Below are positions 18,663 through 41,144 of a stretch of 42,019 nucleotides of DNA, in pieces. Source of the DNA: a virus. Its lineage: Duplodnaviria; Caudoviricetes. Location of the stretch: positions 1-42,019 of IMG/VR virus record IMGVR_UViG_3300045135_001852; one strand, given 5' to 3'. The number at the start of each line of letters is the position of its first letter. Positions within the stretch are counted from its first letter, which is position 1. The notes under the pieces were generated by a model. That model had not been told where the DNA came from and searched no databases. It saw nothing but the letters and a program-made list of their open reading frames with translations. Made by a program: the position numbers and the translations under genes.

Positions 18663-19316
18663 TTATTCCTCCGTTTCCTCAACTTCCTTTGCCTTAACTT
18701 CGCCTTGAATCATCAAATAGTTTAATCTATCTGCCAAGATATTGATTTGCCCGACAATTTCAATGGCCTCATTCGTGGCCGACCTATTATCTTGTAGGGT
18801 GGGTGGTTTAATAAAATAACCTGCGGCGGTGAGTGAAGCGACATCGTTCTTGCTTAGGTGAGTGAGGGGCTTTCCCGACAACGCCTTAGGCATTCTTGGC
18901 TTGAAAGCCTTGAAGTCCAAACCATGCTTCTCAGCAAGAATTTGTTGCTCAAGCATTTCCAACTGTTTGAACATAGCAGAGTGTTTAGGGCAATAGGTTC
19001 CTCTCAATGGTCTTCCTTTTGTTACTCTTTCTAAAGGAATTGGAGGCCTCAAGAAATCCCCCGATTCCCAAAGGTGATGCATTCCACAAACAACGCAACG
19101 GTCTTTGAGATTAAATTTCTTTCCGAACCTAAAGAACAAAAATGATTTCGGTTCAGGCAAAAGAACCTTAATGAGTTCTTTTTCTTTCTTTTTTGGTTTA
19201 ATAGCCATAAACTGGTATTCAACCACTTGTCCTGTTGTTCTTGCTTGTTCAATTGGATTCAACAATGGGTTGAATGCCATTGGTGCGTTCTGTCCTATAA
19301 TTTGTTGTTGATACAT
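18663..19316 (-). CDS. Putative Zn-binding protein (CVVCGMHH...YCPKH)
   Basis: Cys/His ligands and a helical C-terminus; probable start MYQQQ overlaps the upstream stop (TGATG). Confidence 0.65.
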   Translation of the reverse strand: MYQQQIIGQNAPMAFNPLLNPIEQARTTGQVVEYQFMAIKPKKKEKELIKVLLPEPKSFLFFRFGKKFNLKDRCVVCGMHHLWESGDFLRPPIPLERVTKGRPLRGTYCPKHSAMFKQLEMLEQQILAEKHGLDFKAFKPRMPKALSGKPLTHLSKNDVASLTAAGYFIKPPTLQDNRSATNEAIEIVGQINILADRLNYLMIQGEVKAKEVEETEE

Positions 19317-19858
19317 CACATAGTCCCCCATCTATTTTTCTCTTTATCTTCTTTATCGTAGTGTCTCTGTTCAATAGGCTTTACTTTTTTAACCTTTAAA
19401 TTTTGAGTATTCCAGATACAACCTGAATCCATGTCCCATCCATAAAACATATCCATGATGGCTTCTTCATCTCTGCTAACAGAATAAATTGGTTTTACCC
19501 ACGATTTATAATTTAATAATTCTATTCCATCATATGTGTAAGCAACAATATCCCATTTTATTACCACTCTATAAGGGCCAACTTTAAGGCCAAATTTTTC
19601 ATAAAAGTCTTTAGCATCTTCAAAATTTTTGATTTGTAAAATGTTTGATTGGGAAGTGTCCAAATACAAAATATATTTATATGAACGCAACCAACCATAA
19701 TCAACCATATTTCTTCTCATCCACCCACTTCCTAAACTAAACGAATACCATAAGCCTGTGGGTTTCATGCCTTCTTTTTGTCTTTTATTTTCTTTTGTTA
19801 TTTTATCGTTTTTACTAAGAGCAATTCTTTGAAGTGCCTTAATAATATCAAACCACAT
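19316..19858 (-). CDS. Tagged accessory protein (MWFDIIK), possible ADP-ribosyltransferase-like fold
   Basis: N-terminal W-x-x-I-I-K tag; motifs KPTGLWYS, YDGIEL, GWDMDSGCIWN. The fold assignment is tentative. Confidence 0.5.
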   Translation of the reverse strand: MWFDIIKALQRIALSKNDKITKENKRQKEGMKPTGLWYSFSLGSGWMRRNMVDYGWLRSYKYILYLDTSQSNILQIKNFEDAKDFYEKFGLKVGPYRVVIKWDIVAYTYDGIELLNYKSWVKPIYSVSRDEEAIMDMFYGWDMDSGCIWNTQNLKVKKVKPIEQRHYDKEDKEKNRWGTM

Positions 19859-20544: not shown

Positions 20545-21096
20545 CTAAAAATATTTATTTAACATATGTTCAAAATGTATTTTTGCTTCTTTAAACGACA
20601 CTCTAGCCGAACTCATGATTGCTTCTTCTTCATCATAAGATAATTCATACCTGCCTTCAATTTCTGCTATTAAATTCTCTAGTATTTGTTCTGCTAACTC
20701 TTTAACTCTTGAATCGGGCAAATATTTAAAATCAAAATTATCAGTTGCTATTCCTCTTGGAGTTACTACATCATCCTGTAGGGAAGTTTGGGCGGGCGAA
20801 CCGTATTCGTCATCATATTCTAGTAATTTTTTTTCTTTTGTCATCAAAGCCTGTTTTATCATGGGTTTAGCGACATCTTTAGTTTTTCCTGTATGTGAAC
20901 CTAAAAAGGCATAAACTAATGCTTCTGTCAATTTCGGAGTCCAATATCCTGTATCTTCCTCTCCTTGAGAACCTTGATATAATCTATTAAATTTCCATGA
21001 CTGTTTAGGAAAATTAGAATAGCCAGTATGAGTCAATCTGGGTTTATTTGCATCTGTTTCAATAATATATGGTTTCTTCAAAATATTCCACCACAT
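20545..21096 (-). CDS. Tagged accessory protein (MWWNILK), possible ADP-ribosyltransferase-like domain
   Basis: N-terminal tag; RLYQGS...GYWTPKLTEALVYA resembles the ART strand-1 / Y-x-T...A..YA pattern. Confidence 0.5.
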   Translation of the reverse strand: MWWNILKKPYIIETDANKPRLTHTGYSNFPKQSWKFNRLYQGSQGEEDTGYWTPKLTEALVYAFLGSHTGKTKDVAKPMIKQALMTKEKKLLEYDDEYGSPAQTSLQDDVVTPRGIATDNFDFKYLPDSRVKELAEQILENLIAEIEGRYELSYDEEEAIMSSARVSFKEAKIHFEHMLNKYF

Positions 21097-22777: not shown

Positions 22778-24112
22778 TCACGAAAGGTTGGTAATCTTGC
22801 CTTGACCCTTGAAGTAAGAACAACCCATCTCAGCAATTGTGCGATACAATGCTCTGTTTCCGAGTTGTCCCACACCGAATGGGTTTCCGTTAGAAATACC
22901 GTCTTCAAAGTATTGGGTAGGCTTCATGACAGCGAGCCAAAGATGGTCAGTATCAAGTAGCAACATATCCGAAATGGTTCCCGAATCAGCCGAAGTGCTT
23001 TGCATTTGAGCAACAGGAATCAAAGGAATATCGTAGTAGGTAGCCACACGGAAACCAACTTCTGCACCCTTAACACCACGAACACCGTTCACAGTTGGCA
23101 CAATTTCCTTTCTATCCATAAATCGCTCTTGACTCTGTAAGAGGTCAGAAAGCGTTTGAAGGGTATCATATCCAGTTAGAATGACCTTTGGAGAACCACC
23201 GTTCTGTCGCAATTCACGGAGAGTAGCGTTAAGAATACTCAAAGTGAATGGGCGAGAACCACCCGAAGCGTAACTGTCAGCACCATTAACGACACAATCA
23301 AGGAAAGAAGCATCATCACGGTTTGTTCCGTAAATGTGGTATGCTTCCGAAATGTCGTTGGTAATAGACGAAACAGGGAAGTTATCGCTGTCCATTTGGT
23401 CTAATTCAGCGTTAGACGAAATAATCTTGTAAAGCGAGGTGTAGTTTCGCTCAATATCTGCGGCGGCGTTGGTTTTATCTGCTTGAAGGTATGCTTCAAG
23501 AGGTGCGAGCATCATAAGGTTTTGAGCCTCTGCATGGTGCTTACCCATATCTTCTCGCATTTGCGCTCTAATGTCACCAATTCCATCGTCAATTTGAGCC
23601 ATTTCCATAGCCAATTCGCTGAAATCAAACTGATGAGCGACGGTTTTTGGACTCATAAAGAGCGTTGAGTATTCGGGAGCAATAGCGATTAAGCCATCAC
23701 CCGAAGTTGAAAGTGATGCATTTTCAGGCACACCACCAATATGGTCAAGGCGTGGAGCATCAGTTCCAGCCAAATCCGTTCCCGTTTGGGTGAAAGAGTG
23801 AGTGTTGCCCGTTCCACCAGCAGGTCTCTTTGAAAGGACTCTCCAACCGCTTGAAGTGTATGGTCTCTTTGCCATAACAGAAAGTGCATTCACTTCACGG
23901 TTAAGCATAGACCAAACTTTTTGTCCATAAAGGACATTGTAAAGATTTCCTGCAATTCCAGTTGTTGGGGAGGTTTGGGTTGCGGCATCATGACCACCAT
24001 GAATACCACTAACGGCCCCTGCCGTCTTCAAGAGCATGTTGTTTGCTCCATTGAAGTTTAATCCGTATGTTTGTGCTTCTAAGTCTGCAATAGTGTTAAT
24101 ATATCCTACCAT
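22778..24112 (-). CDS. Major capsid protein, HK97 fold (444 aa)
   Basis: Follows protease/scaffold; size and motif order fit HK97-type capsids (GGVPEN, PKTVAHQFDFSE, GGSPKVILTG, VATYYDIPLIP, MLLLDTDHL); RBS GAGGTGA. Confidence 0.85.
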   Translation of the reverse strand: MVGYINTIADLEAQTYGLNFNGANNMLLKTAGAVSGIHGGHDAATQTSPTTGIAGNLYNVLYGQKVWSMLNREVNALSVMAKRPYTSSGWRVLSKRPAGGTGNTHSFTQTGTDLAGTDAPRLDHIGGVPENASLSTSGDGLIAIAPEYSTLFMSPKTVAHQFDFSELAMEMAQIDDGIGDIRAQMREDMGKHHAEAQNLMMLAPLEAYLQADKTNAAADIERNYTSLYKIISSNAELDQMDSDNFPVSSITNDISEAYHIYGTNRDDASFLDCVVNGADSYASGGSRPFTLSILNATLRELRQNGGSPKVILTGYDTLQTLSDLLQSQERFMDRKEIVPTVNGVRGVKGAEVGFRVATYYDIPLIPVAQMQSTSADSGTISDMLLLDTDHLWLAVMKPTQYFEDGISNGNPFGVGQLGNRALYRTIAEMGCSYFKGQGKITNLS

Positions 24113-24121
24113 GTTATCACC

Positions 24122-25312
24122 TCAAAGGTTTCCTCCGTAAGCCATCTTATGGATTTCATTCCAGTCCATTTCGGCTAATTCATCCATAGATGGGAGTGTA
24201 ATTGTGGCTTCTTCTTGAGCCTTTAGGATTTGCTCCTTTTCGCTGGTCAAGGACTTGCGAAGAGCAGTAAATTCATCCTTAAGAGAAGCAATCTCGGAAG
24301 CCGCATCATATTGCGACTTTGCGAGAACATCTTCTCGGTTGTTCTTTTCAGCCGCAAAGCGGGCCTCAAATTGCTTTTGGAGGTTGTCGTAAGCCAACTT
24401 CTCAAGTTGTTCTTGACGGAAAGCCTCGTAAGCCTTCTCAATGTTACCAACACTCAAGTCAAGAGTTTCTAATTCCGTGTTTTCAAAGGCCTTGACAACA
24501 GGCATATCGCTTGCTCTTGGCTTTCCGTTATCAATAACGATTCGGTCAGCAGGTTCACCAATTTCAACGCCAGCACCATCAAGAGTGGAAACATAGGCCT
24601 TTGCCTCTCTATCCATTTCTTCGGTGTCCATCGCTTCTAATTCATCATCTGCGCTTTCCATCATGTCATCGCCTTTTTCATAATCCAACTTTTCGGACAT
24701 GTCTTCTTCCTCTTTTCGGAGAGTATTGACTTCATTCATCAATGCGTCTAACTCTTCCAATGCTTTTTCCAGTTTGCTCATATTTTTCACCTTTTGGTTT
24801 TCTTGCTTTAAAATGTCAAATTTTGCTTCGGGGTTAATTCCTTTTTCACAAATAGTGACTTCATGTAGTTCAAGTTTGCTAATTTCATTATATTGACCTA
24901 ATTCGGGATGGCTTTTCTTTACTTTATGAATTGCTTGCCCTCCAATACTAAATGACCTTAGCGAACCTTTTCTAATTCCTCTATTGATTTCCTTTGCTTT
25001 TTCAATATCATCTCTTAATTTGATTACCACAAAGAATCCGACATCATCAACTTCTGTTTTCCATAACTTTCCGTTTTTGTCTCGGTATGATTTTACAACT
25101 TCTCCTACTTGAACATTTGAATGATTTGTCATTACATTTCTAAACTTTGGATTCTCCATGTATTTTTCAACTGCTTCGTTTAATGCTTTGAGTGTGATTA
25201 AATCATTTTGTTTATCCACGATTTCAATACTTGCATATCCACCAATCATTAGGTCATCGCTTTTTAGAATCCGAAAATCATGTTGTGTATCTCTCTTGAG
25301 TAGGAGGGACAT
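24122..25312 (-). CDS. Prohead (maturation) protease fused to scaffold domain
   Basis: HK97/U35-type motifs IGGYASIEIVDKQNDLI, catalytic H (TNHS), S (SFSIGG) and LHEVTIC..GINPEA, followed by an acidic coiled-coil scaffold. Confidence 0.9.
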   Translation of the reverse strand: MSLLLKRDTQHDFRILKSDDLMIGGYASIEIVDKQNDLITLKALNEAVEKYMENPKFRNVMTNHSNVQVGEVVKSYRDKNGKLWKTEVDDVGFFVVIKLRDDIEKAKEINRGIRKGSLRSFSIGGQAIHKVKKSHPELGQYNEISKLELHEVTICEKGINPEAKFDILKQENQKVKNMSKLEKALEELDALMNEVNTLRKEEEDMSEKLDYEKGDDMMESADDELEAMDTEEMDREAKAYVSTLDGAGVEIGEPADRIVIDNGKPRASDMPVVKAFENTELETLDLSVGNIEKAYEAFRQEQLEKLAYDNLQKQFEARFAAEKNNREDVLAKSQYDAASEIASLKDEFTALRKSLTSEKEQILKAQEEATITLPSMDELAEMDWNEIHKMAYGGNL

Positions 25313-25341
25313 TTCCAACAACCTCTTCTTACATCAACTGG

Positions 25342-25357
25342 TATATAAAGAACATGC
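25342..25357 (-). promoter_or_regulatory. Archaeal-type TATA box (TTTATATA) preceded by GCATGTTC; probable late promoter for protease/capsid genes
   Basis: Intergenic minus-strand GCATGTTCTTTATATACC about 30 nt before the ATG. Confidence 0.55.
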
Positions 25358-27877
25358 TTATCTCGGTATTTTTTGGTTAGAATATTTGTCCTCAGCAATA
25401 TTCCATAACCCTTTATCACCTTCAATATCTGCTGGTTTTTGCTCGTAACCAGTCCAAGCCAACCACATTTTTTGCCCCCCTACAGGAAGATAGCGAACAT
25501 GAAATTTCGTTTCAAACTTGTTCCCTTCTAAGAAATATTCATGGTAGCCATCCCTTTGGATTCCAAGTTTTACAGTCCCGCTATCAACGACCTTTTCTTT
25601 GTCTATATTTTGGGCTACTTCTGCTGGATATTTTCCCGCCGCCCCGAAGAGGTCAAACATTTCTTCTTCATCCTGAATATCAATTAGCCAATTAATGCTT
25701 TCATCACCGAGTCTCATCACCATATTCAAATTATTATCTTTTCTTAAATATAGTTTAAATTTACCTTTTTGGTATTTTTCAGGTGTTTTGTATTCTGCTT
25801 TCAAAATAGCACTACCATACAACTTGTTATCCTTGAAATCAATATGTTCTCTTTGGTTAGCCCATTCTTTTAGTCCCTGTAACCCACCATCAACAACATC
25901 ACCATACAGGTCTTTATGTTTTGCAGTCAAAAAATTATGAACTTCTTTTACAGTTTTTGGCCCATTATCTTGAAGATAGTTGGTAATAGCGGTGGTTAGT
26001 GTTCCCGCCTTTGTTTTCATAATGTCTTCTGCTTGAGAATACCAATCTTCTAAATTAATGGAGGCATTTTTAGACATGAGATTATCTTCTTCAAAACCAT
26101 ACACAGTAAATCCAGACATATCCGATTTACAAATAATAGTTGCTGTTCCATGAATATGGTCGGTGATTGTTATTCCTTTCTTGAGACCCTCAACAGAATA
26201 ATTTAATGATTTCTTTGTGTCTTGAGCCAGTAATTCTAAGGTGACGATTTTATCGGGATATTCAACTTCAGGAACTTCAATAACCTTTGCAGAATAAAGA
26301 GTATATCTATCGCCAGCATTTTTAACTTCATCAACCTTGACACGAATAATTTCACCGACATCAACAGAAATTTTAGTATTGAGTGCTTTGCCTACATTCA
26401 TGTATTTGATACCATTCACTTCTTGAGTGAATTTGTTTTCTTCATCAACTGGGCCAACGCCTACGGTATAAGAATACAAATTACTCTTTGTTTTTTTCTT
26501 ATCAAGAACAATAACATCTAAATCAACAAACTTTTTCCACTTAATCCACTTAGGGTTCTTTTTTGTTCCGACATAGTATGTTGAAGTAGCATCCTTTATC
26601 ACGACTCCTTCCGATGTAGGCATTTCCATGATTTCTTTAGCATATTCTTCAATATCCTTTATGTTGTCTGCTTCTCTTGTGTCTTTCTTAGATGGAAATT
26701 TCAAAACATCTGCGGAATGCTGTGAGTAATTATTGAACATGATTGTCATTCTATCTTCTAACTCTGAATCCAAGAGGGTTTGATTTTCATGTCGCATAAT
26801 ATCAAAGACATGACACTTGAGGGTTGCTTTTGGATATTTATTTTTGAAGACATGAGCAATTGTATCGGCACGATGTAGGGATTCTTCTCCATCAAATAGA
26901 ATTAATTCTGCATCAAGAATGCAATCACCAAAATGCTTCGCTCTTAATTCTTCAACAATTTCTTTGCACTTTTCAGTAATAGGTTTTTTATTGTATGAGA
27001 AGATTTTGATATTGTTATCAATCTTATGCAGTTGGACTCTCATGCCGTCATACTTTTCTTGAACAAACCATTTGCCGCTAAATCCTTTTAATTCATTAAT
27101 GTCTTCTATGTCAAATATTCTATACATTGGTTTATTAGGGATAATAAAATCAGTTAAGGATTTTTCTTCTTCCGATTTTTTTTCCTTTTTAATTGACACA
27201 GACTTTTCTTCTTTTTCAGGTTCTAAACCCTCAATGTCCAATAATTCATTCAAGTCTTTTTCTTCGTGCCTTGAGAGCATAAGCAACTCTAACATTTCCA
27301 TAGCGGCTTTAACAGCCTTTTCAGTCCGTTTGGAGTCTTTTCCATCGCCGTAATGCTCAATAATATAGAGGGCTATGTCGTCAGGTTGTAGGTCAAGACC
27401 CTCTAAACCGAAGGTAAGGTCGTCTTCTTTCATGTCCTTAATTGCATAAATTTCCTTTGATAGAGGGTTTTTATCATTTCTTAGGGCATAATGAACAAAT
27501 TTAACCATTGATTCGGGGTTGCCTAACAACTCCTCCAAGACCTTTCCCTTGAATCTTTTAGCAAAAGGGTCGGAAACCATATCGGAAGAATATCGCAAGA
27601 GTTTAACTGCTTCATACAATTCTTTTGCTTTGATAGTGGTTGGGTCTTTGGTGTCTGTATTTTCAAGAAGGTCTTCGGGAATGAAGTCTTTCATTTCGTT
27701 GCTGGCGGCATCTGTATCGTTATAGGAATCAGTAACCATCTCAACGGCTTTTCTCCAACGACCGCCATATTCTTTTGGGTCATTGGCGGCAGAAAGGTAA
27801 GCCACTCTCGTTTTCTCAAACAAGCGAAGAATTTCTTCCGAAGGACGCTTATCCTTCTCAATGTCTGAGAGGCGCAT
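25358..27877 (-). CDS. lig: ATP-dependent DNA ligase with N- and C-terminal extensions (839 aa)
   Basis: Motif I EKYDGMR, III LDAEL, IIIa VFDIM, IV EGVVIK, V WIKWK, followed by an OB domain. Confidence 0.9.
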   Translation of the reverse strand: MRLSDIEKDKRPSEEILRLFEKTRVAYLSAANDPKEYGGRWRKAVEMVTDSYNDTDAASNEMKDFIPEDLLENTDTKDPTTIKAKELYEAVKLLRYSSDMVSDPFAKRFKGKVLEELLGNPESMVKFVHYALRNDKNPLSKEIYAIKDMKEDDLTFGLEGLDLQPDDIALYIIEHYGDGKDSKRTEKAVKAAMEMLELLMLSRHEEKDLNELLDIEGLEPEKEEKSVSIKKEKKSEEEKSLTDFIIPNKPMYRIFDIEDINELKGFSGKWFVQEKYDGMRVQLHKIDNNIKIFSYNKKPITEKCKEIVEELRAKHFGDCILDAELILFDGEESLHRADTIAHVFKNKYPKATLKCHVFDIMRHENQTLLDSELEDRMTIMFNNYSQHSADVLKFPSKKDTREADNIKDIEEYAKEIMEMPTSEGVVIKDATSTYYVGTKKNPKWIKWKKFVDLDVIVLDKKKTKSNLYSYTVGVGPVDEENKFTQEVNGIKYMNVGKALNTKISVDVGEIIRVKVDEVKNAGDRYTLYSAKVIEVPEVEYPDKIVTLELLAQDTKKSLNYSVEGLKKGITITDHIHGTATIICKSDMSGFTVYGFEEDNLMSKNASINLEDWYSQAEDIMKTKAGTLTTAITNYLQDNGPKTVKEVHNFLTAKHKDLYGDVVDGGLQGLKEWANQREHIDFKDNKLYGSAILKAEYKTPEKYQKGKFKLYLRKDNNLNMVMRLGDESINWLIDIQDEEEMFDLFGAAGKYPAEVAQNIDKEKVVDSGTVKLGIQRDGYHEYFLEGNKFETKFHVRYLPVGGQKMWLAWTGYEQKPADIEGDKGLWNIAEDKYSNQKIPR

Positions 27878-27890
27878 TTAACACACCTCA

Positions 27891-28514
27891 TCAACGACGA
27901 CGATTTATTCTGGCTATGTTTCCACTAATTTTAACGATGAAATTGTCGTTTAATTTTCTACTTAGTCGCATTTCAATATAATTTTCAAGTCTATATTTTA
28001 GGAGAAATTCTGCTCTTTTTACATTCTCTTCATCAACTCTTAGATTTGACCTTTTTGCTCTTAAATATAAATTTGCCACTCTTCTTGAGTCTTCCCACCT
28101 TTCTTTAAGTTCACTTATATCCATTTCCATTTTACCATACAAGTCATCCATCATTCTTGCATCTAAATCACTTGATGTTCCAGCAGAAGTCATTTTATTA
28201 GATAATTTCTCAAAAGACCTATCAAATGCACTATTAATCATATCCATTTGCTGTTTCATTGGGCGCATAGATTTCTTAAACTGCGTTGTTTCACCAGCCA
28301 AACCATATCCCGAATGAGTCCCAGTATTATTCTCAATCTTGGTCTTATCCTTCTCGGCCTTTGGTCTCTTGGTCTTGACCTGCTCCATTCTGTCATCCTT
28401 TTCATCGGGCAAACGGTTTCCTTCCATAGATTCACGAAGTAATTCCTTTGCTTCTCTTGCCTTTTCAATCGTCAATGAAATGACTCTTTCTTCTTTACTT
28501 ACTCTTTCAGGCAT
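27891..28514 (-). CDS. Hypothetical head-module protein (207 aa)
   Basis: Charged helical ORF; AGGTGG RBS; coupled to the upstream gene. Confidence 0.7.
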   Translation of the reverse strand: MPERVSKEERVISLTIEKAREAKELLRESMEGNRLPDEKDDRMEQVKTKRPKAEKDKTKIENNTGTHSGYGLAGETTQFKKSMRPMKQQMDMINSAFDRSFEKLSNKMTSAGTSSDLDARMMDDLYGKMEMDISELKERWEDSRRVANLYLRAKRSNLRVDEENVKRAEFLLKYRLENYIEMRLSRKLNDNFIVKISGNIARINRRR

Positions 28515-28756
28515 TATTGTCCACCTACCTTTTCAACCATTTTATGAATATCCGACCAGTCCATTGAATTGACATCAACCCCTACCGAGGCTCCAATGCT
28601 GTCAATCATAGGAGTAGGAGTTTCAGCAACAACAAAGCCCGACTTCATCAATAAGTTATCCTTATTATATACTGCTCTTTCAAGGGTTTCAATCTTTTCA
28701 GATAGAGCCTTGATAATTTCCAGCATTTCTTGATTGATTGTCTTTTCTTCGCTCAT
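28514..28756 (-). CDS. Small scaffold-like protein (80 aa)
   Basis: Coiled-coil N-terminus; C-terminal MDWSDIHKM matches the scaffold C-terminus MDWNEIHKM. Confidence 0.65.
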   Translation of the reverse strand: MSEEKTINQEMLEIIKALSEKIETLERAVYNKDNLLMKSGFVVAETPTPMIDSIGASVGVDVNSMDWSDIHKMVEKVGGQ

Positions 28757-29118
28757 TTTTCATCATCTCGCTTTTTCTGTGGATAAACTAAATCTCGGAG
28801 TTGTCGGTAAAGGAGTTCATACTCCTTACGGAGTTTCGTAGCGGTAGCCACTATGTCAATGTTGCGCTCATCCATTGACTTCATCTTCTTGTTCAGTTTC
28901 TTGTCCGACTTGGTAAGGTCAAGTTCTCGCAAAGTCTCAATTAATTCCCCAAGTTTCGTAAAATCTTGACCAAAAAACTCCGTAGGTTCTGCGGCTTGAA
29001 GTGTCTTTTTGAGCCTCTTTTTTTCTTTTGCGCCTAAGGAATCTAATATTTCCTTAGGTGCTATTTTATCCTTTTTGAGAACAAATTCTTCTCCAGTATT
29101 ATAGTAGTCCCATGTCAT
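28753..29118 (-). CDS. Hypothetical helical protein (121 aa)
   Basis: ORF coupled to the downstream gene (ATGA overlap); GAGTGA RBS. Confidence 0.7.
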   Translation of the reverse strand: MTWDYYNTGEEFVLKKDKIAPKEILDSLGAKEKKRLKKTLQAAEPTEFFGQDFTKLGELIETLRELDLTKSDKKLNKKMKSMDERNIDIVATATKLRKEYELLYRQLRDLVYPQKKRDDEK

Positions 29119-32920: not shown

Positions 32921-33379
32921 TCATTCTTCTTCGGGGTCTTGCGTTCTCAATGGTTGCGGTAGGGTTTGGCGGTAGTATTCAGGACTTCTCCTTTCTCGCA
33001 TTTTTGTATCTCTTTCTCTTCTTTTCTCTTGTCTAATTCTCATTAACTCTTCATCTAATTCTGCATCTTTATCTGCTTCTTCTTGTCTAAAAGAATACAT
33101 TTTCTTATATTCTTCATATGATGGAATCGGCATTTCTAAAAATGTATCCTTTGCATCGGGCTCCATGTTCAAAAGGTAATTATACGCTCTTTCTGAAATA
33201 AAAGGGGTAGGTCTTATGCTATTCCATTCATTAACAAATTCTTGAAAATCAAATCGTTCATATCCCGAAACTCCATATTGTATTTTTTTATTTCTTCCAT
33301 ATTTTTTTCTTTCCAAATTGGCCTTTGCTTGCATCAATTCGGGAGGAATCATTTTATATTTTAGAATATCTTTCCACAT
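32921..33379 (-). CDS. Tagged accessory protein (MWKDILK, 152 aa)
   Basis: Start corrected using the AGGTGA RBS 4 nt upstream; R/E-rich C-terminus. Confidence 0.7.
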   Translation of the reverse strand: MWKDILKYKMIPPELMQAKANLERKKYGRNKKIQYGVSGYERFDFQEFVNEWNSIRPTPFISERAYNYLLNMEPDAKDTFLEMPIPSYEEYKKMYSFRQEEADKDAELDEELMRIRQEKRRERDTKMRERRSPEYYRQTLPQPLRTQDPEEE

Positions 33380-33387
33380 GTAATCAC

Positions 33388-33555
33388 CTAATATGGCTTG
33401 GCCCAGTTCATGGCCTGTTCTATTTTGCAAGTTAAACAAAGGTCACTTATTTTATTGGCTTTTTTACACCCTCTGCAAACTGTAGCGAACCTGATGTTTT
33501 TTGGTAGTTTGGTTCTAACTTTGTGCTTAAACACATCGTAATGCTTTCTTGGCAT
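33388..33555 (-). CDS. Small Zn-finger protein (55 aa, not in ORF track): MPRKHYDVFKHKVRTKLPKNIRFATVCRGCKKANKISDLCLTCKIEQAMNWAKPY
   Basis: Translated by hand; CxxC-x9-CxxC; exactly fills the gap between its neighbours. Confidence 0.65.
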   Translation of the reverse strand: MPRKHYDVFKHKVRTKLPKNIRFATVCRGCKKANKISDLCLTCKIEQAMNWAKPY

Positions 33556-33556
33556 C

Positions 33557-34561
33557 TTACCGCCTTCTCTCTCTGTCTAATTCATCCAACCTTCTTGCCC
33601 TTCTCATGGCCTCTGTCGCCCGCTTTGTTCTTTCAATTTCTTCTCTCTTTCTTGCTTCTGCGGCTCTCTTTTGTTCGGCTCTTTCCGAAGCAGATTTTCT
33701 TCCTCGCTTTTGTCGGGCTTGCTTAGGTTGTCTTTGACCTTTTTTTCTTGGAGACTGTCTTGTAGCAACTTGTCTCATTCTTTGTTGCTCTAACTTTTTT
33801 CTTCTTTGCATTTCTGCTTCTTGCTCTTTTTTCTTTTGTGCGGGAGACATCATTCTTTTTCTTCTTCGTTCTCGCACCAGTTCTCTTTTGTATGGATTTG
33901 ACATTCCCGTCATTAATTTTTGATGTATTGCATTTAATTCAATTTCGTCGGTTAATGATTTTAACCAATCCCTATCAATTATTGAAAGATAATTCTCATT
34001 TGGTAAAAGGCTTACAGATTTATTTGACTTTGAGCGCGCCTTAATAAAATCATAATAATTAAAACCTAAATAATGTTCCATAAGAGGAACCAATTGAGCC
34101 ATAATTTTTCTGTTTAATTTAATTCTTGTCTTTCCATATTCAAAAAGCCTTCGGGCTTCCGAGAGAACATACTCACTATATTTACCTGTTTTTTTACCAG
34201 TTACTATTGGTCTTTTCTCTTCAACTATATCTTCCCAATATTCTATATCTCTTTTTTTGTCTAAATAGTTTTTAGCATACGATTTAGCCCACCTTAATAT
34301 AAAAATTCTATCTAAATCATCTTGAGTAAATTCACCATAATATACATCAAGGAAAAAATCTTCATCTTTATATTTCGCAGGAATTTCGCTATTCAATCTT
34401 TTATATAGTCTTATTTCATCGGATAATTTCATAAGCCTATCTTCAAAGCCCTTAGCGTAAGAAGGAACAGGTTTTGCAAATTCATCCCATTTATTTGGTC
34501 TTCTTAATATAGGCGTATTTTCAAAATCAAATCTTTTCTTCTTTAGGGTATCAAACCACAT
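33557..34561 (-). CDS. Tagged accessory protein (MWFDTLK, 334 aa) with very basic R/K/Q-rich C-terminal third
   Basis: N-terminal tag; start overlaps the end of the LAGLIDADG gene. Confidence 0.7.
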   Translation of the reverse strand: MWFDTLKKKRFDFENTPILRRPNKWDEFAKPVPSYAKGFEDRLMKLSDEIRLYKRLNSEIPAKYKDEDFFLDVYYGEFTQDDLDRIFILRWAKSYAKNYLDKKRDIEYWEDIVEEKRPIVTGKKTGKYSEYVLSEARRLFEYGKTRIKLNRKIMAQLVPLMEHYLGFNYYDFIKARSKSNKSVSLLPNENYLSIIDRDWLKSLTDEIELNAIHQKLMTGMSNPYKRELVRERRRKRMMSPAQKKKEQEAEMQRRKKLEQQRMRQVATRQSPRKKGQRQPKQARQKRGRKSASERAEQKRAAEARKREEIERTKRATEAMRRARRLDELDRERRR

Positions 34562-35891
34562 TTTGCATTCCCCCAATTTGTTCAATAGAGTCCATTACCG
34601 ACATTTTACAATTGTCTTTGTATTTTTGAATATCATCAAGAACGATATTCTCCTTAGCCCAATCAAAACCTACATGGTCTTTATGGTTTTCCCACTTCAT
34701 GAGTTTGAAGATTTCATCACAGCGACTTTTATACCAATCAGCCTTCTTGTAAGATTTTTTCATACGAATCAATTCCAATAGTAATTTTGCATTTCCTTTC
34801 TTTAAACGAAAGTGAGGCAAGCATTTCGTCAATAGATTCACTACATCATCTTGAGAGTAAAAATTCAACCTGTTGATAAGCCGTGTGTCTTGGGGAGATT
34901 TTTGGTCTAAGTGCATACGGCCAAAACCAATTGATTTATGCATCTCGGTCATAAATGCCTTCCCTCTTTCTCCTGTTGCGACCAATCCTACTCTTGGATT
35001 CATCTTGCGGTCAAGAGTAATATAGCCATCGGAGTCAATAAATGCGGCAGTATAAGCCCAAATATTTTTCTTAATTTCATCAGGTATTTTGTATAACGAA
35101 CCCTTTACCGAAACAATACCCAACTTTTTAATTTCTTGAGAAATAACACTTGGACTACAACTCTTGTGTAAATCGCTTGGCATTCGGTCGTGAATTTCGG
35201 AAGCGGTGATGCCATGCTTCTCACAGACTGCTTTCAAAATAAAATCTCTTTGCCTCTCTTTCTTTGATTTGTTCAAAGACTGGTTGGTGATTTTAGCGAT
35301 GCACTCTCTAAAATTTCTCTTGGCAAAAGACATCTCTTTTGAAAGGCGGGAATACTCCTGTCCATAGACCATTCCTTTCTGTTCTGTTTCTGCTTCCCAG
35401 TATTTACAAAGAGCATCAACAACTTCCCTTCTTTCCTCAAGGCTTTTCATCTTGTTTAATTTTTGCAAATCCTTTTCATTGAACCTCATTTTAAGAAGAG
35501 ACTCTTTGTAGGGTGCTAACCAATAAATGGAATCAATGCACTTAAACAAATGGTCTGAGTAGGCATCAATCATTGTATCAATTGCCTTTGACATTTTATC
35601 TCTATTCTCACCCTTCAACTTTCTTCTTGACATTCTCATTTGCTTCACAAGGTCGGGAATGTTTCTTTCTTGCACAACATATTCGGGCGGAAAATTTTCT
35701 AAAGCCTTTCTTGCCTCAGTAGCATTAATTTTCAAAACATCACAAAGCGTTGAAATTTCTTCATTTTCGGACATCACATAATCCGAATAAAGAGTTTTGG
35801 AAAGCATTTTTTCTTCTTGAAAAATTTCGGTATCGGCATCCCTATTTGCCTCCTCTTTGATTTCTTCCTCTCTTCTTTGAAGTTCGGCCAA
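34551..35891 (-). CDS. Helical + HTH + LAGLIDADG endonuclease-domain protein (possibly starting at ATT 35939)
   Basis: WAYTAAFIDSDGYI motif, then LLTKCLPHFRLKK; HTH-like GITASEIHDRM...SVISQEIKKL precedes it. Confidence 0.8.
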   Translation of the reverse strand: MAELQRREEEIKEEANRDADTEIFQEEKMLSKTLYSDYVMSENEEISTLCDVLKINATEARKALENFPPEYVVQERNIPDLVKQMRMSRRKLKGENRDKMSKAIDTMIDAYSDHLFKCIDSIYWLAPYKESLLKMRFNEKDLQKLNKMKSLEERREVVDALCKYWEAETEQKGMVYGQEYSRLSKEMSFAKRNFRECIAKITNQSLNKSKKERQRDFILKAVCEKHGITASEIHDRMPSDLHKSCSPSVISQEIKKLGIVSVKGSLYKIPDEIKKNIWAYTAAFIDSDGYITLDRKMNPRVGLVATGERGKAFMTEMHKSIGFGRMHLDQKSPQDTRLINRLNFYSQDDVVNLLTKCLPHFRLKKGNAKLLLELIRMKKSYKKADWYKSRCDEIFKLMKWENHKDHVGFDWAKENIVLDDIQKYKDNCKMSVMDSIEQIGGMQNVV

Positions 35892-35948
35892 CTCTTTGGC
35901 CTTTTCCGAGATTTTATCATACTGTTCGGCAGTTGGAATAATCTCACC

Positions 35949-37373
35949 TCAAAAATTTAAACCAAGACCACGATAAACTTGCCTCGTTGGTTTGGCCTCC
36001 TCAAAGAGTCCCAAATCGTCTAATAGTATGAAGTTATCCGAGGCTTGGTAAGTGGCCGCATTTGCCAAAGCAAGGCTCATCACCATATCGTCATGCGCCC
36101 CAATACCCTCAAACTTTCCTCGTTCTGTGATGGCAAACATGGATAACTCCTCAATCAATGTGGAGGTAACTCTCCTACTTTCTTCGTTGCCATAAGGGAA
36201 ACTCATCTTTGAGTTTTCTAAGGTCATCTGCAAGTTGAGGATGATTTCTTGTTTCTTCTTTCGGGTAGTGTTGAAGTCGTGAATATTAAGGTCTGCCACT
36301 TGGCGCAACTCTTGAGTGAATGATTTAGCGAAAGTATTCGTTTCAAAAAGAATAACTTCGGGTCTAAACAGTTGTCCAATAATTTTGACCTTTTGTATAT
36401 TTTCTCTAAACTGAACATTCTTTGCTCGGTCAATATACACAATGGATTTGTTTTCATTTTCATCCATCTCAAGAACCGTGATAACATTGTAGTCACCATC
36501 TGTTGAAATAGCAGGGTCCACACCTACAAAATATTTCATGCCCTCCCTGCGATGGGGTTTCAAAACCAAATCCTTATTCTTCGCCGCATCTAAGTATTCG
36601 GGGTTGAATAAAGAAGTCCCTGTTGAGATTGGCACACACATATACTCTCTTGTGAACATCAAAGAACCAACTTCCGCTTTACGGGCCATCAATGCTTCAT
36701 AATTCCAACGCTCAGGCCATAACGGTTCATTGAGAGAATTTAGACAAGGATATGTCCTCACCGTATATGCTGGATTTTCTGCGAGTTGTTGGTAAATATC
36801 CGTGTAAGAAAATGGAGTCCCGATAACACGAAGAGAAGCGGTGTGGTGAAGTGTAGGAATCATGTCACCATAAAACCAATCTGTTACTTTTTGAATACCC
36901 GTCATACTAAACTCTTTCAAAGGGTCGTCAATGATAATTTCTTGAGGGTGCAGACCACGAATCTGTGAGCCAACAGAACGCTCAAGGATTTGATTTCCAT
37001 TGGTGAGGGTAATATTCCCGATAGCCCAACCCCTTGCAGGTTTGAATTTTTTAAGCATCGGATGGGTGAACATTTTATCAATATCTCTCATATGAACTAA
37101 AGTCTGCTTTTGGTTAGAAGAGATGTAAAGCATTTGATATGGGGGTTCTTCAAAGATTAATTTCCATACAACCCATGAATGCATAAATACAGATTTTCCG
37201 TGGTCTCTTGAGCAAATAATTACAGTTCTTTGAGTTTCGTTCATTAAATTATGCCACTCTTGTATGTATGAAGGAAAATCAAAACCAAGAACATTTTGAA
37301 AGAAATACGGAAATGAGTTTTTGGATAACTTCATATCCATTTCATGTTCAAAGTTGAAGGTATCTAATTCCAT
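35949..37373 (-). CDS. terL: Terminase large subunit (474 aa)
   Basis: Walker A SRDHGKS, Walker B IIIDD, motif VIGTP, nuclease GVDPA and HDDMVMSLALA. Confidence 0.95.
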   Translation of the reverse strand: MELDTFNFEHEMDMKLSKNSFPYFFQNVLGFDFPSYIQEWHNLMNETQRTVIICSRDHGKSVFMHSWVVWKLIFEEPPYQMLYISSNQKQTLVHMRDIDKMFTHPMLKKFKPARGWAIGNITLTNGNQILERSVGSQIRGLHPQEIIIDDPLKEFSMTGIQKVTDWFYGDMIPTLHHTASLRVIGTPFSYTDIYQQLAENPAYTVRTYPCLNSLNEPLWPERWNYEALMARKAEVGSLMFTREYMCVPISTGTSLFNPEYLDAAKNKDLVLKPHRREGMKYFVGVDPAISTDGDYNVITVLEMDENENKSIVYIDRAKNVQFRENIQKVKIIGQLFRPEVILFETNTFAKSFTQELRQVADLNIHDFNTTRKKKQEIILNLQMTLENSKMSFPYGNEESRRVTSTLIEELSMFAITERGKFEGIGAHDDMVMSLALANAATYQASDNFILLDDLGLFEEAKPTRQVYRGLGLNF

Positions 37374-37888
37374 TATTCTTTCCTCTCCTTTTTACGCCTA
37401 TATTGTCTAACTGGCCCTTTTTTTCTTTTAGCATACCTTTCTCTTGCTTGCCGATTTATTTTTTCTTTATATTCGGGGTCATCGGCCCGCCTTTCTTTTC
37501 TTTGACGATTTCTTTTTTCTCTAAATTCGGGGTCAGCGTGTGTTTTTTTGTTTCCTTCTAATAATTTTCTTCTAAATTCAGGGTCATTAGCATACCTTTC
37601 CCTTCTCCTTTCTTGACTTCTTTCTTTATATTTTTCCATATAGTTTGAATTTATTTCCTCCAACCTTTCTAAAAAATTTTCATATTGTTCTGCTTCTGCC
37701 AAATTTGTAAGTTTTTCAAATTCATTTTCAGTAATCTCTTCTGTTAATTTACCATCACTAATCGCTCGCATTAAACTTAGAGAGGGAGTTAATTTCTTAG
37801 TATCTGCACTTGGAATACCAAATACCTCCACAAGAAACCTTTGAAAATCACTCGGAAAATTCACCTTTAAAATATCAAACCAATTCAT
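37373..37888 (-). CDS. Tagged accessory protein (MNWFDILK, 171 aa) with three DPE[FY] basic repeats
   Basis: N-terminal tag; repeats NDPEFRRK / ADPEFREK / DDPEYKEK. Confidence 0.7.
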   Translation of the reverse strand: MNWFDILKVNFPSDFQRFLVEVFGIPSADTKKLTPSLSLMRAISDGKLTEEITENEFEKLTNLAEAEQYENFLERLEEINSNYMEKYKERSQERRRERYANDPEFRRKLLEGNKKTHADPEFREKRNRQRKERRADDPEYKEKINRQARERYAKRKKGPVRQYRRKKERKE

Positions 37889-37892
37889 TTTA

Positions 37893-38498
37893 TCACCAGT
37901 TTAAACTCTCAAGAAACTTTTTATGTTTTCTTCCATATATAGCAATCGCTTGGTCTGCCCTGTTCGGTAAAAGTTTTCTTTTAAACTTATCCGCTTTTCT
38001 TTGCCTAATCTCTAATCTAAGTATTTTTTCTCTGCTTTCTAAATCGGGGGCTAAGTTATTTACCCATCTAATTAGAGATTTTAATTCCTTAGTATTTGCT
38101 TTTTCTAAATATTTACCTAACCAACTAACAGTATTATAGGAATCTCTATTAAAAGAAGCAGGATGTTTTACTAAATTAACTATCGCTAAATAAAGACTTT
38201 CTGGGAATTGTAATCTATATGCTACTCCTTCAAGTCTTTGTATATTTCTATCTTTACCAAAATCGCTAGGTTGGGTTTTAAAATGTCCAGCATGGCCTCC
38301 TTCATGCATAAGCGTTCTTTTGATAAACTCTGTAATTTCCTTATCGGTTGGTTCTCTCTTTAGTTTCTTTTTAAGATATGCGTAAATAGAGGTAGGGTTC
38401 ACTAAAATCTCATCAAGAGCAGTATCATATTGTCCAAATTTATCGCCTAAATAGAAATCAAAATCCGCATCAGTTTTAAGAATAGAAAACCAACTCAT
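37893..38498 (-). CDS. Tagged zincin-like metallopeptidase (MSWFSILK, 201 aa)
   Basis: HEGGH (HExxH) in RTLMHEGGHAGH, with a downstream Glu (LEGVAY) as a candidate third ligand. Confidence 0.65.
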   Translation of the reverse strand: MSWFSILKTDADFDFYLGDKFGQYDTALDEILVNPTSIYAYLKKKLKREPTDKEITEFIKRTLMHEGGHAGHFKTQPSDFGKDRNIQRLEGVAYRLQFPESLYLAIVNLVKHPASFNRDSYNTVSWLGKYLEKANTKELKSLIRWVNNLAPDLESREKILRLEIRQRKADKFKRKLLPNRADQAIAIYGRKHKKFLESLNW

Positions 38499-38503
38499 TG
38501 AAA

Positions 38504-39046
38504 TCACTCCCACACAAACCAGTCAAGTTGTTTTGTAATTCGCCAATCTTTATACCTTTCATCATTTCTAAAACTGTTTAATACCTCATCAGGAATAACC
38601 TCATGTTCTGCTGGTTGTTCCCCAGTAGCAAATCTTATTGCTCCCATGTCGGTATATCCAGCAATTTTAGGTATGCCTTTTAAGTCACCAAGATATTTTT
38701 CTCTAACAACATTTGTGGGTATTCCTTTAAATTCTCTTGTTCTGTTTCCTCTAATCCCACCAATAAAAGCAAACTTCTTCCCTCCCTTTCCTTGTCTAAT
38801 AGCATAGCCGCCGATTGCCCCAAGAATAGGCTTGCCATTTACTTTCTTGATAACACCATACCAAGTGTCTATGGGGTAGTAACCTAACCCTCTTGAGTCT
38901 CTTGTTTGCATTTGCAGAGTTGGGTTACTTGCATTCCACAACTCAATGACTTCTTTTTCGTCTTTGAATTTAACCAAAACTTGAGATTTTTTACCTAACA
39001 ACTCCACCAAGCGAGGATGGTCTTTGATAATATCCCACCAAGACAT
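38504..39046 (-). CDS. Tagged accessory protein (MSWWDIIK, 180 aa), possibly GNAT-like
   Basis: N-terminal tag; beta-strand pattern WYGVI...ILGAIGGY...FAFIGGIR...EFKGI is loosely GNAT-like. Confidence 0.45.
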   Translation of the reverse strand: MSWWDIIKDHPRLVELLGKKSQVLVKFKDEKEVIELWNASNPTLQMQTRDSRGLGYYPIDTWYGVIKKVNGKPILGAIGGYAIRQGKGGKKFAFIGGIRGNRTREFKGIPTNVVREKYLGDLKGIPKIAGYTDMGAIRFATGEQPAEHEVIPDEVLNSFRNDERYKDWRITKQLDWFVWE

Positions 39047-39050
39047 GCTA

Positions 39051-39284
39051 TCACTTGTTCATGGTATTTCTAAAAATGTTTGCGAATGCTCCTTCAATAT
39101 TTGCAATCTTGCCATCAAACCCTGTGAGTAGTCTGCGAAGTTCAGCCAAATCCAAATCTTCTCCACCAACATATTCATATGCAATTTCTTTCAAATCTGT
39201 CAAAATTTCAATAGTGTTTCCTAAGTCATCAATTAATTTTTGACCATCTTCTTTCAGTCTTTCATCCGATAATTTGCGAACCAT
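39051..39284 (-). CDS. Hypothetical helical protein (77 aa), untagged
   Basis: GGTGA RBS; fills the gap in the cluster. Confidence 0.65.
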   Translation of the reverse strand: MVRKLSDERLKEDGQKLIDDLGNTIEILTDLKEIAYEYVGGEDLDLAELRRLLTGFDGKIANIEGAFANIFRNTMNK

Positions 39285-39288
39285 TTTA

Positions 39289-39744
39289 TCACCACAATTT
39301 TTTACAGGCTAAACAGCGAGGAGTTGTAATGCGCCCTTTGCATTGGTCGCAGTTGTGCCGTGATTTGAAGTTTGCTCTTCGTTTTCGGTTTTTATGGGTT
39401 CCTCCGCCACGATTCTTGCCCTTTCCTTTCCAATTGCCGTAGCCCTTTGCGCCAGCATGAATTTTCTTTCCTTCATGGGTGAGCATCATAATTTTCTTAC
39501 CTGCTCTGTCGGAAGGATAAACACGACCAACTCGCATATCCTTTTTGTCCTTCTTGGAAATAATGTCACCATCTCTATGCTCATAAATTTTATTTTTCTG
39601 CTTGAGGCTTTCCAACGCTTCTTTGATTTCTTTTTCGCTACCAAATTTGGTTAAGTTTTTCATGCCTAATGCTCCGCCTTCCTTTTCAATCTCAGCAAGG
39701 ATTTTAGATTCTAAATCCGATTTTAGTATTGCTTTCCAACTCAT
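39289..39744 (-). CDS. Tagged basic Cys-containing protein (MSWKAILK, 151 aa)
   Basis: Tag, winged-helix-like N-part, then KKIHAGAKGY...RRANFKSRHNC...LW domain. Confidence 0.7.
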   Translation of the reverse strand: MSWKAILKSDLESKILAEIEKEGGALGMKNLTKFGSEKEIKEALESLKQKNKIYEHRDGDIISKKDKKDMRVGRVYPSDRAGKKIMMLTHEGKKIHAGAKGYGNWKGKGKNRGGGTHKNRKRRANFKSRHNCDQCKGRITTPRCLACKKLW

Positions 39745-40130
39745 TGTTCTCCCCTCATTTGGTTTTCTTTTGATGTTTTGTCGTCATCAATTGGGCCACC
39801 TTTCGCCCATGTGTAGCAAGTCCTATCCTTGTGACACTTGAAATGGTGCATCCAACAATACCCTAATTCGCCTTCCATTGGCATACACTTTTCCATGCGA
39901 GGCGAAATATCAAAAGCAACACAGTTACTACACTTTGACTTCTTAGCGACTTCGGGAGTAGTATTCCAATGGTCTGCGGCTCTTACCCAATAATCTTCAT
40001 CTTCTAAATTGAGCGGGCCATATTGGATATGTTCTGCTTTGATAGAAGCATCTCGGTTTTTTGTGTTTAGTTTAAGGTCTTGTGTTGCTCTCGGACAAGC
40101 CAATTCTTTCAATATGATTTCCCAACTCAT
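39741..40130 (-). CDS. Tagged Cys-rich protein (MSWEIILK, 129 aa)
   Basis: Tag; CPRATQD..LNTKNR, YGP, CSNC, GYCWMHHFKC...TCYTW..GGP. Confidence 0.7.
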   Translation of the reverse strand: MSWEIILKELACPRATQDLKLNTKNRDASIKAEHIQYGPLNLEDEDYWVRAADHWNTTPEVAKKSKCSNCVAFDISPRMEKCMPMEGELGYCWMHHFKCHKDRTCYTWAKGGPIDDDKTSKENQMRGEQ

Positions 40131-40372
40131 GCCCCCTTCCTCCTTTTGTAAGTTTTACAAGCGGCACAGGTTGGTCTGCATCTTTGCTTTGTTCCTTTAG
40201 AAGCATCTTTACGACCACAAGGCTTTGTTCCTTTTTTGTCATCTTCGCAAGATTGACAAGAAACCCATCCCTTTTGACCTCCTCCACCTCTTCGTGAAAA
40301 CCATCCGTGAAGTCCCTCTTTCTTTTCTCTTGCGAAGTTATCTCCGCCTTTGAGGACTCCTTTCCAAGACAT
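40127..40372 (-). CDS. Tagged small basic Cys-rich protein (MSWKGVLK, 81 aa)
   Basis: Tag; GLHGWF...WVSC...KPCGRK...CRP. Confidence 0.7.
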   Translation of the reverse strand: MSWKGVLKGGDNFAREKKEGLHGWFSRRGGGGQKGWVSCQSCEDDKKGTKPCGRKDASKGTKQRCRPTCAACKTYKRRKGA

Positions 40373-40379
40373 AACATCA

Positions 40380-40685
40380 TTACTCCAAAAGTTTATTTTC
40401 TCTTTCTTTTAGAACATTTTCTATTTCTCTAATGTGCGAAAAGTATTCTTCGGGGTCTTTGCTTCTCTCTTCAATGAGGGCATTAGTAGCCATATATATT
40501 TCGTCTTTCAATTCGGGAATATCCATCTCCATTTCTAATTTATTCGCTAACTCTTTAATTCTGACTAAGGCAGACTCATAATCACTAACGGCATCTATCA
40601 GTTCTTTTTCTAAATACTTAAATTGTTGAGATAATTTATCATAGGGTTGTTCGTCATATTCTTTTAGAATTGCTTTCCAAGACAT
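40380..40685 (-). CDS. Tagged acidic helical protein (MSWKAILK, 101 aa; start corrected)
   Basis: ATG at 40685 lies 4 nt after the upstream stop (AGTGA RBS-like). Confidence 0.7.
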   Translation of the reverse strand: MSWKAILKEYDEQPYDKLSQQFKYLEKELIDAVSDYESALVRIKELANKLEMEMDIPELKDEIYMATNALIEERSKDPEEYFSHIREIENVLKERENKLLE

Positions 40686-40689
40686 AGTA

Positions 40690-40845
40690 TCACTTCTTCT
40701 TAGATTTGTTTCCCCAATTGGAAGCCCCGACTTTGCGACATTGAACCAAAGCACCCGAAGCATAAGCAGAAGGCCACTTCTTGTAGCGGCTCTTTACCTT
40801 ATGGTAGCAAGCATCCTTTTCCTTCTTGAGAATTTCTTGCCACAA
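40690..40845 (-). CDS. Tagged small basic protein (51 aa, not in ORF track): MWQEILKKEKDACYHKVKSRYKKWPSAYASGALVQCRKVGASNWGNKSKKK
   Basis: Translated by hand; TTG start after GAGGGGA; fills the gap exactly. Confidence 0.75.
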   Translation of the reverse strand: MWQEILKKEKDACYHKVKSRYKKWPSAYASGALVQCRKVGASNWGNKSKKK

Positions 40846-40847
40846 AA

Positions 40848-41144
40848 CTATCCCCTCATAATCTTGCTTGGAAACCTTTTACAATCCTCATACACATTAA
40901 TCATTTGAACCAGTCTTTCTTTGAAACCTTCGGGCAAGTTTGAACTACTTGTTAGGAAATTCATGTGTCGCAAAATTTGCTTGCATCCCGAATACTGAAA
41001 TCTTATTGAGTATTTAGGTTCCAAAGTAGGGTCATTTGTCGCTTCTCCCAAGTCTCTCATAAACTCATCTGCTTCTCTTTTTAATTCGGCACAGCAGAAA
41101 TCCTCAGTATTCATTTCCACCCTTTTCAAAATATCTTGCCACAT
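40848..41144 (-). CDS. Tagged accessory protein (MWQDILK, 98 aa; start corrected)
   Basis: AGGTGA RBS 4 nt before the ATG; CC...C...C pattern. Confidence 0.7.
   Translation of the reverse strand: MWQDILKRVEMNTEDFCCAELKREADEFMRDLGEATNDPTLEPKYSIRFQYSGCKQILRHMNFLTSSSNLPEGFKERLVQMINVYEDCKRFPSKIMRG

Follow-up and report, generated by a model that had tools for sequence, protein, structure and literature searches.

Two separate genes of a putative archaeal virus, the fused prohead protease-scaffold and a gene for an 80-residue protein (p80), end in the same short tryptophan-bearing segment, here called the W-helix tail. Because this tail is shared, changes in step between the two genes and belongs to a wider homology with the last 45 residues of the scaffold, p80 is likely a second, self-encoded (accessory) scaffold. 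The original prediction had proposed p80 as a mini-scaffold and had further suggested that N-terminal tags on other proteins of the virus mimic the scaffold helix. As a whole it is partly borne out: the mini-scaffold proposal gains support and the mimicry is weakened.

The DNA analysed here (the window) is IMG/VR record IMGVR_UViG_3300045135_001852, positions 1 to 42019. All long ORFs of this 42-kb record are on the minus strand, as are all window features described below, and they encode a terminase, a portal, an ATP-dependent ligase, an S78 prohead protease and an HK97-fold coat protein. The nearest GenBank records are Druskaviridae haloviruses. The structural module with its embedded ATP-dependent ligase and the Druskaviridae-related coat are the features expected of Magrovirales; the Magrovirales replication module (PolB, primase, MCM) is absent from the 42-kb record. 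On this basis we treat the window as the virion arm of a magrovirus, an ocean archaeal virus. Magroviruses are uncultured and their hosts are abundant ocean archaea; their assembly is therefore known only through gene names. The Magrovirales/Aoguangviridae described so far, like the window, have an HK97 coat, protease, portal and terminase and, set within the structural module, an ATP-dependent ligase (PMC10768690; accessible text of PMC5434244), and the latter source gives the ligase within the structural module as a feature of groups A and B. We found no mention of the scaffold tail, p80 or the tags in PMC10768690 or in the accessible text of PMC5434244. In the window, the ligase domain is central (about residues 260-450) in an 839-aa protein (25358-27877) that has long unannotated N- and C-terminal regions and is placed between p207 and the protease, a placement known from PMC5434244.

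One C-terminal tail in two genes

The protease-scaffold ends in MDWNEIHKMAYGGNL followed by the stop codon (24122-24169; family pattern M-[SD]-W-x-[ED]-[IVA]-H-x-[LM]) and p80 ends in MDWSDIHKMVEKVGGQ, again followed by the stop codon (28514-28564). Both peptides lie exactly where the original prediction had located them, and the M-x-W-x-x-I-x-K spacing that it described fits both tails and the tags within this genome. The two tails have 7 of 9 residues in common; pairing the C-terminal 20-mers of 46 window ORFs gives 1035 pairs, and no other pair matches as well (runner-up 5 of 9, reached by 11 pairs). The tryptophan is present in 261/261 complete protease relatives (ORFs >250 aa) and 176/176 p80s from 20 lineages (fetched loci, redundant), as well as in 120/120 among the p80 homologues listed. 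A DNA pattern for M-x-W-x-x-I-H-K-M, run over the scanned quarter of IMG/VR, gave 149 matches, comprising 81 protease-scaffold ends, 56 p80 ends, 2 truncated scaffold ends and 10 unrelated sequences; 137 of the 149 are C-ends of the protease-scaffold or p80 families and lie 13-16 codons before the stop. Exactly two genes per genome, scaffold and p80, carry the C-terminal pattern in six near-complete genomes, and in a seventh, fetched in part, the pattern matches the p80.

p80 (28514-28756) is modelled by AF2 as a monomer with a helix (residues 4-38), a Pro-rich linker and a tail helix (67-77), at modest confidence (mean pLDDT 68, pTM 0.31). It matches no named family in Pfam, PHROGs, PDB sequences or the ESM Atlas, and against PDB-sequence profiles gives weak coiled-coil matches only (E 0.01-0.25). 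When whole genomes are searched with the p80-family profile, the only other protein matched is the C-end of the scaffold, with E-values of 2.7e-4 and 5.1e-4 in two of three related genomes and of 0.006-0.023 in all four distant ones. HHalign aligns p80 residues 23-76 to the last 45 residues of the scaffold (probability figure 95.6%, E 1.2e-8, 22% identity in the aligned part) and places K38 of p80 on K364 of the scaffold, a Lys motif about 30 residues ahead of the tail. The two proteins therefore have a common ending, consisting of coil, phi-phi-K, Pro-containing tether and W-helix. An invariant central segment of p80, L-M-K-[SA]-G-x-V..P-x-P, is partly missing from the scaffold.

The gene is found in both group A- and group B-like lineages. 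Its homologue in Poseidoniales virus YSH_150918 is gp097 (63% identity). A group-A-like lineage with a 36% identical coat has an equivalent protein of 109-116 aa, laid out in the same way; loci for one distant p80 (P0253) were sought and none turned up. The p80 gene stands between portal and ligase, surrounded by conserved genes that do not encode coat. This distribution, the shared and co-varying tails, the homology to the scaffold end and the helix-linker-helix model together support by inference the earlier view of the 80-aa protein as a second mini-scaffold.

Across 16 lineages in which both tails are available, the scaffold and p80 consensus tails are more similar within a lineage than when shuffled (mean BLOSUM 36.4 versus 31.9, p=0.0003, 20,000 shuffles), a p-value that is optimistic since the lineages are related and not independent. 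Both tails of one lineage (L455) read HALA, for example, and both tails of two others (L383 and L385) have N at +4, counting from W as 0. Within the window's own clade (27 clusters) there is no such signal (48.3 versus 48.5). Position by position, the scaffold and p80 tails overlap by 0.73 at +4 and 0.77 at +6. Synonymous codons of the two tails are alike in 94/158 cases (59%) within a genome and in 3510/6157 (57%) across genomes; identical codons being no likelier within a genome, selection acts on the protein and the tails are not DNA copies. Since two separate genes keep the same surface, we infer that one binding site serves both tails.

Predicted nested scaffold and cleavage sites

The HK97-type prohead protease (S78) is fused to the scaffold in a protein of 396 aa (24122-25312, with an alternative TTG start at 25321). 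It matches PF04586 (E 2e-9) and phrog_23555 (E 5e-15), and its PF04586 score of 38.2 bits against a curated cut-off of 21 places it in the S78 family; the scaffold profile has no match in the PDB. An in-frame internal ATG after the protease domain opens a predicted nested ORF of 219 aa (24122-24781), preceded by a GGTGA ribosome-binding motif (24787-24791) that lies 5 nt ahead of the ATG, a spacing as in other genes. The internal Met is present in 46 of 47 sequence clusters and is Leu in the remaining one. A motif resembling a ribosome-binding site accompanies it in 44 of the 46 clusters, compared with 80 of the 617 remaining in-frame Mets. The motif is kept while the residues that it encodes vary; in the group-A-like set the motif is found at the internal start in 27/41. 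The protease gene thus likely yields a free scaffold as well, a product predicted from the conserved start, and with it three tail-bearing products are likely: protease-scaffold, nested scaffold and p80.

The prohead protease is predicted to be Lys-specific and to cut after phi-phi-K. Such a site stands directly ahead of the catalytic domain (K17, 25262-25270, in 46/47) and another directly past it (K169, 24806-24814, in 47/47). A third precedes the tail linker of the scaffold (K364, 24221-24229, in 47/47), and p80 has candidate cuts at I-I-K16 (28709-28717) and L-M-K38 (28643-28651), each in 44/44. The invariant phi-phi-K sites of coat, protease, scaffold and p80 are all at domain borders. 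The motif is enriched in the protease-scaffold (7 versus 2.4, p 0.003); enrichment is not significant in p80 alone (2 versus 0.6, p 0.08) or in the coat (2 versus 0.8, p 0.16). It is also invariant inside folded domains (K98 and K115 of the protease, K397 of the coat), so the motif alone is no marker of a cut. For HK97, the accessible text of PMC10275583 gives the protease cut as K103/S104.

The major capsid protein (22778-24112; PF17236, phrog_24667) has the HK97 fold, and a Foldseek search finds the Mic1 capsid as best match (E 1.9e-10). The underlying AF2 model was used for this fold search only; it has a mean pLDDT of 59 and residues 1-73 are mostly below 50, so it is uninformative on a pocket at the N-arm. 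The sequence has an invariant N-terminal helix followed by phi-phi-K29 (24026-24034, in 40/40), the predicted maturation cut, and in the lineages shown this site is kept despite a spacer of variable length. K29 aligns, via a group-A-like coat, with a Lys of the coat of the related halovirus HVTV-1. That coat (in L081:18934-22236) carries a number of Lys sites among its first 100 residues, including the residue aligned with the magrovirus site, and is reportedly processed at its N-terminus. We also compared coat columns between 10 sequences without and 121 with the tail His; four weak candidates for co-variation (columns 76, 198, 265 and 423) came mostly from one clade and are given no weight as evidence.

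N-terminal tags and models of head assembly

The window has 13 ORF starts with W-x-x-[ILVT]-x-K, the number given in the original prediction; one of them, at 40845, requires a TTG start. Eleven are in a cluster (32921-41144) where they are interspersed with the terminase and an HNH gene, their W codons lying at 41141, 40842, 40679, 40366, 40124, 39738, 39040, 38492, 37882, 34558 and 33376. The other two are downstream of the coat gene (183 aa, 20545-21096; 180 aa, 19316-19858). In three complete group-B-like genomes, 49 of 49 tags are on the capsid-gene strand. Tag codons vary synonymously, and the tags have the attributes of a capsid-targeting sequence (CTS), being short N-terminal peptides shared by unrelated late proteins and selected at the protein level. 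A split tag is seen on p121, the conserved 121-aa neighbour of p80 (28753-29118), where W and F-V-L-K are about 10 residues apart. The tag of p121 is compact in other clades, which means that a conserved core gene of the head module is tagged. Group-A-like genomes use a different form, M-x-x-F-[DE]-x-A-W-x-phi-phi-K, found in G005, G006, G007 (L473-L491) and in L394, L412, L435, L450 and L459; F-x-x-A-W-x-phi-phi-K is the form seen in 8 of 9 capsid-strand hits in group-A-like genomes and in 5 of 6 in a second such set.

Some tagged genes have a visible recent history. The short tagged ORFs 40690-40845 (51 aa) and 40127-40372 (81 aa) correspond to segments of longer, undivided ORFs in relatives, which suggests module splitting with re-tagging. 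In a relative, five adjoining tagged genes (G001:C1:62363-64977, minus strand) have a longer common N-terminus, the tag being followed by N/R-Q-x-A/S-S-T-K-G; this suggests a recent paralogue array. A DNA-level repeat or gene conversion as the origin of tails or tags was ruled out by the codon comparisons.

On balance we favour, with some reserve, a model in which the shared tails dock at one procapsid site, p80 acts as a second scaffold and the tags are a separate, cleavable label. Both W-helix tails would bind the same site inside the procapsid, most probably on the coat protein, which is the likeliest partner by analogy with the 80alpha scaffold protein (SP) and CpmB. The full protease-scaffold, the nested free scaffold and p80 would all carry the tail. 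The N-terminal helix of p80 would serve for oligomerisation and its tail helices would be displayed on a short tether, much as in SaPI CpmB; p80 could thereby link capsomers to one another or give order to the core or to the portal vertex. As the head matures, protease cleavage after phi-phi-K would release the tails, strip the coat of its 29-residue leader and clip the tags from co-packaged proteins. The tags end in the Lys motif that is invariant where coat, protease and p80 are likely cleaved; they are for this reason likely a packaging label that the protease removes, working like the CTS of T4.

If instead the tags mimicked the scaffold tail, they would recruit cargo to the same coat pocket and the appended Lys site would cut the anchor later. 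We consider this unlikely. W at 0, an acidic residue at +2 (overlap 0.56) and I/V at +3 (0.79) are indeed common to tags and scaffold tails, tags often start with M-S-W as tails do, the tags of the group-B-like genomes are confined to the capsid-gene strand, and the aromatic/+3/+4/+7 helix face of the group-A tag, F-[DE]-x-A-W-x-phi-phi-K, fits the tail of its own group if F replaces W. At +4, however, the tags have L or I (His in 3/248 W-starting ORFs) and 59 of 68 distinct scaffold tails have His, giving an overlap of 0; at +6, which is not hydrophobic in the tags, it is 0.07. The Lys differs too. It is found in 89/89 scaffold tails of the window's lineage and in 0/172 from 19 other lineages (p80 tails, 59/59 and 18/97), and a tree puts the scaffold tail-K on one branch with support of 99; the tree is a quick search in which long branches meet and was used solely for this split. 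The tags keep their Lys in 50/59 cases where the scaffold tail of the cluster lacks one and in 109/115 where it has one, and the terminal phi-phi-K is common to tags of all groups. Of the W, I and K that had been expected to be conserved in homologous scaffolds, W and the hydrophobic +3 are, and K is not; the agreement in M-x-W-x-x-I-x-K spacing between tags and tails thus appears to be partly local to this lineage. The form of the tag, with W one residue closer to Lys in group A than in the window type, changes between groups and the tail nearly does not, so that mimicry would need different registers in the two groups. W and the Lys motif have drifted apart in p121, and group-A-like genomes with tags on 0-5 genes only have full tails nonetheless. 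A broader address code, in which one aromatic amphipathic helix and one coat pocket serve the scaffold, the mini-scaffold and also 15-20 fast-turnover cargo proteins per genome, these last in a register that is lineage-specific and with a Lys cut site added, seems to us doubtful; were it true, an eight-residue tag would suffice for packaging any protein into an archaeal virion and delivering it to the host.

The tail could also dock on a head component other than the coat, such as the portal, a protease exosite or the scaffold core, with p80 as an adaptor that tethers p121, p207 or the head-module ligase and gives no shape to the head. The invariant central segment of p80, its place among conserved non-coat genes and the lack of any coat column that co-varies convincingly with the tail are consistent with this. 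We nevertheless regard it as quite improbable: an amphipathic C-terminal helix is the usual coat-binding element (80alpha; accessible text of PMC5644958), the same tail is on the nested scaffold, and the coat has an invariant N-terminal helix ahead of K29 that is comparable to the N-arm helix touched by the 80alpha SP. The homology of p80 to the C-end of the scaffold might also mean that the shared tail was left over from a gene duplication and has no common function today. This reading is very improbable indeed and is largely refuted by the co-variation of the tails, which change in step while the aligned remainder has diverged to 22% identity and there is no sign of homogenisation at the DNA level.

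Comparison with known assembly systems

The design behind our preferred model, in which tails dock and tags are clipped, is already known from 80alpha/SaPI, T4 and lambda. The 80alpha SP and SaPI1 CpmB have nearly identical C-terminal helices, which attach to one coat site next to the N-arm helix (Dearborn et al., 2017; PMC5644958, accessible text). As described there, CpmB is small and helical and oligomerises through its N-terminal region. p80 likewise has a C-terminal helix shared with the main scaffold, and its predicted helix 4-38 may be the counterpart of the oligomerisation region. The two differ in that CpmB is encoded by a satellite and hijacks its helper, whereas p80 is the virus's own gene, located in the head module and kept across group A- and B-like lineages, and in the motif itself, W-x-x-I-H in p80 and RIIK in CpmB. 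Searched against CpmB in PDB sequences, p80 gives no profile match and does not belong to the SaPI CpmB family.

An in-frame start after the protease domain, giving a scaffold with the same C-terminus, is found in lambda C/Nu3, HSV-1 UL26/UL26.5 and HFTV1 gp17/gp17.5 in the accounts accessible to us and is predicted here, where the start past the protease domain is conserved together with its ribosome-binding signal. In the archaeal virus HFTV1 the nested scaffold was shown by ribosome profiling and, as far as the accessible text goes, has no Shine-Dalgarno-like motif (bioRxiv 10.64898/2026.09.13.751334), in contrast to the conserved motif ahead of the predicted product here. A third tail-bearing gene, p80, goes beyond these nested protease/scaffold designs. 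The T4 CTS is an N-terminal leader of about 10 aa that the prohead protease removes; T4 labels variable internal proteins in this way and has further scaffold-core proteins beside the main one, the minor core proteins gp67 and gp68 among them (PMC9958956, accessible text), which parallels the predicted label and the likely second scaffold here. Compared with that CTS, the present tags have a different sequence, are paired with an S78 protease predicted to be Lys-specific and are found on 13-18 genes per genome as against a handful.

A conserved 'hypothetical' gene, p80, thereby gains a likely role. Predicted besides are the nested scaffold and a map of Lys-specific cuts, and tail and tag, which resemble each other in this one lineage, are told apart. 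If correct, a conserved, virus-encoded, CpmB-like second scaffold would extend the satellite's trick to ordinary head assembly. We did not find p80 described as a conserved second scaffold in the open magrovirus literature, including the accessible text of PMC11706807, PMC5434244 and PMC8651126.

Further afield, the protease-scaffold of HVTV-1 is without a W tail, and in 21.6 kb of vir335, a Methanomassiliicoccales virus, neither the protease nor the p80 profile had a match and there were no tags. A contig from a Thorarchaeota bin (L315:8306-11002) encodes a related coat with a helix-then-Lys leader and a protease-scaffold that ends in a W tail; p80 was not found in 21 kb of this contig and no clear tags were seen, though the scaffold has the tail. 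Magrovirus head modules are also held by contigs of bacterial MAGs (Maricaulis, Altibacter, Parvibaculum and Flavobacteriaceae; L310-L314, L316), which are probably mis-binned.
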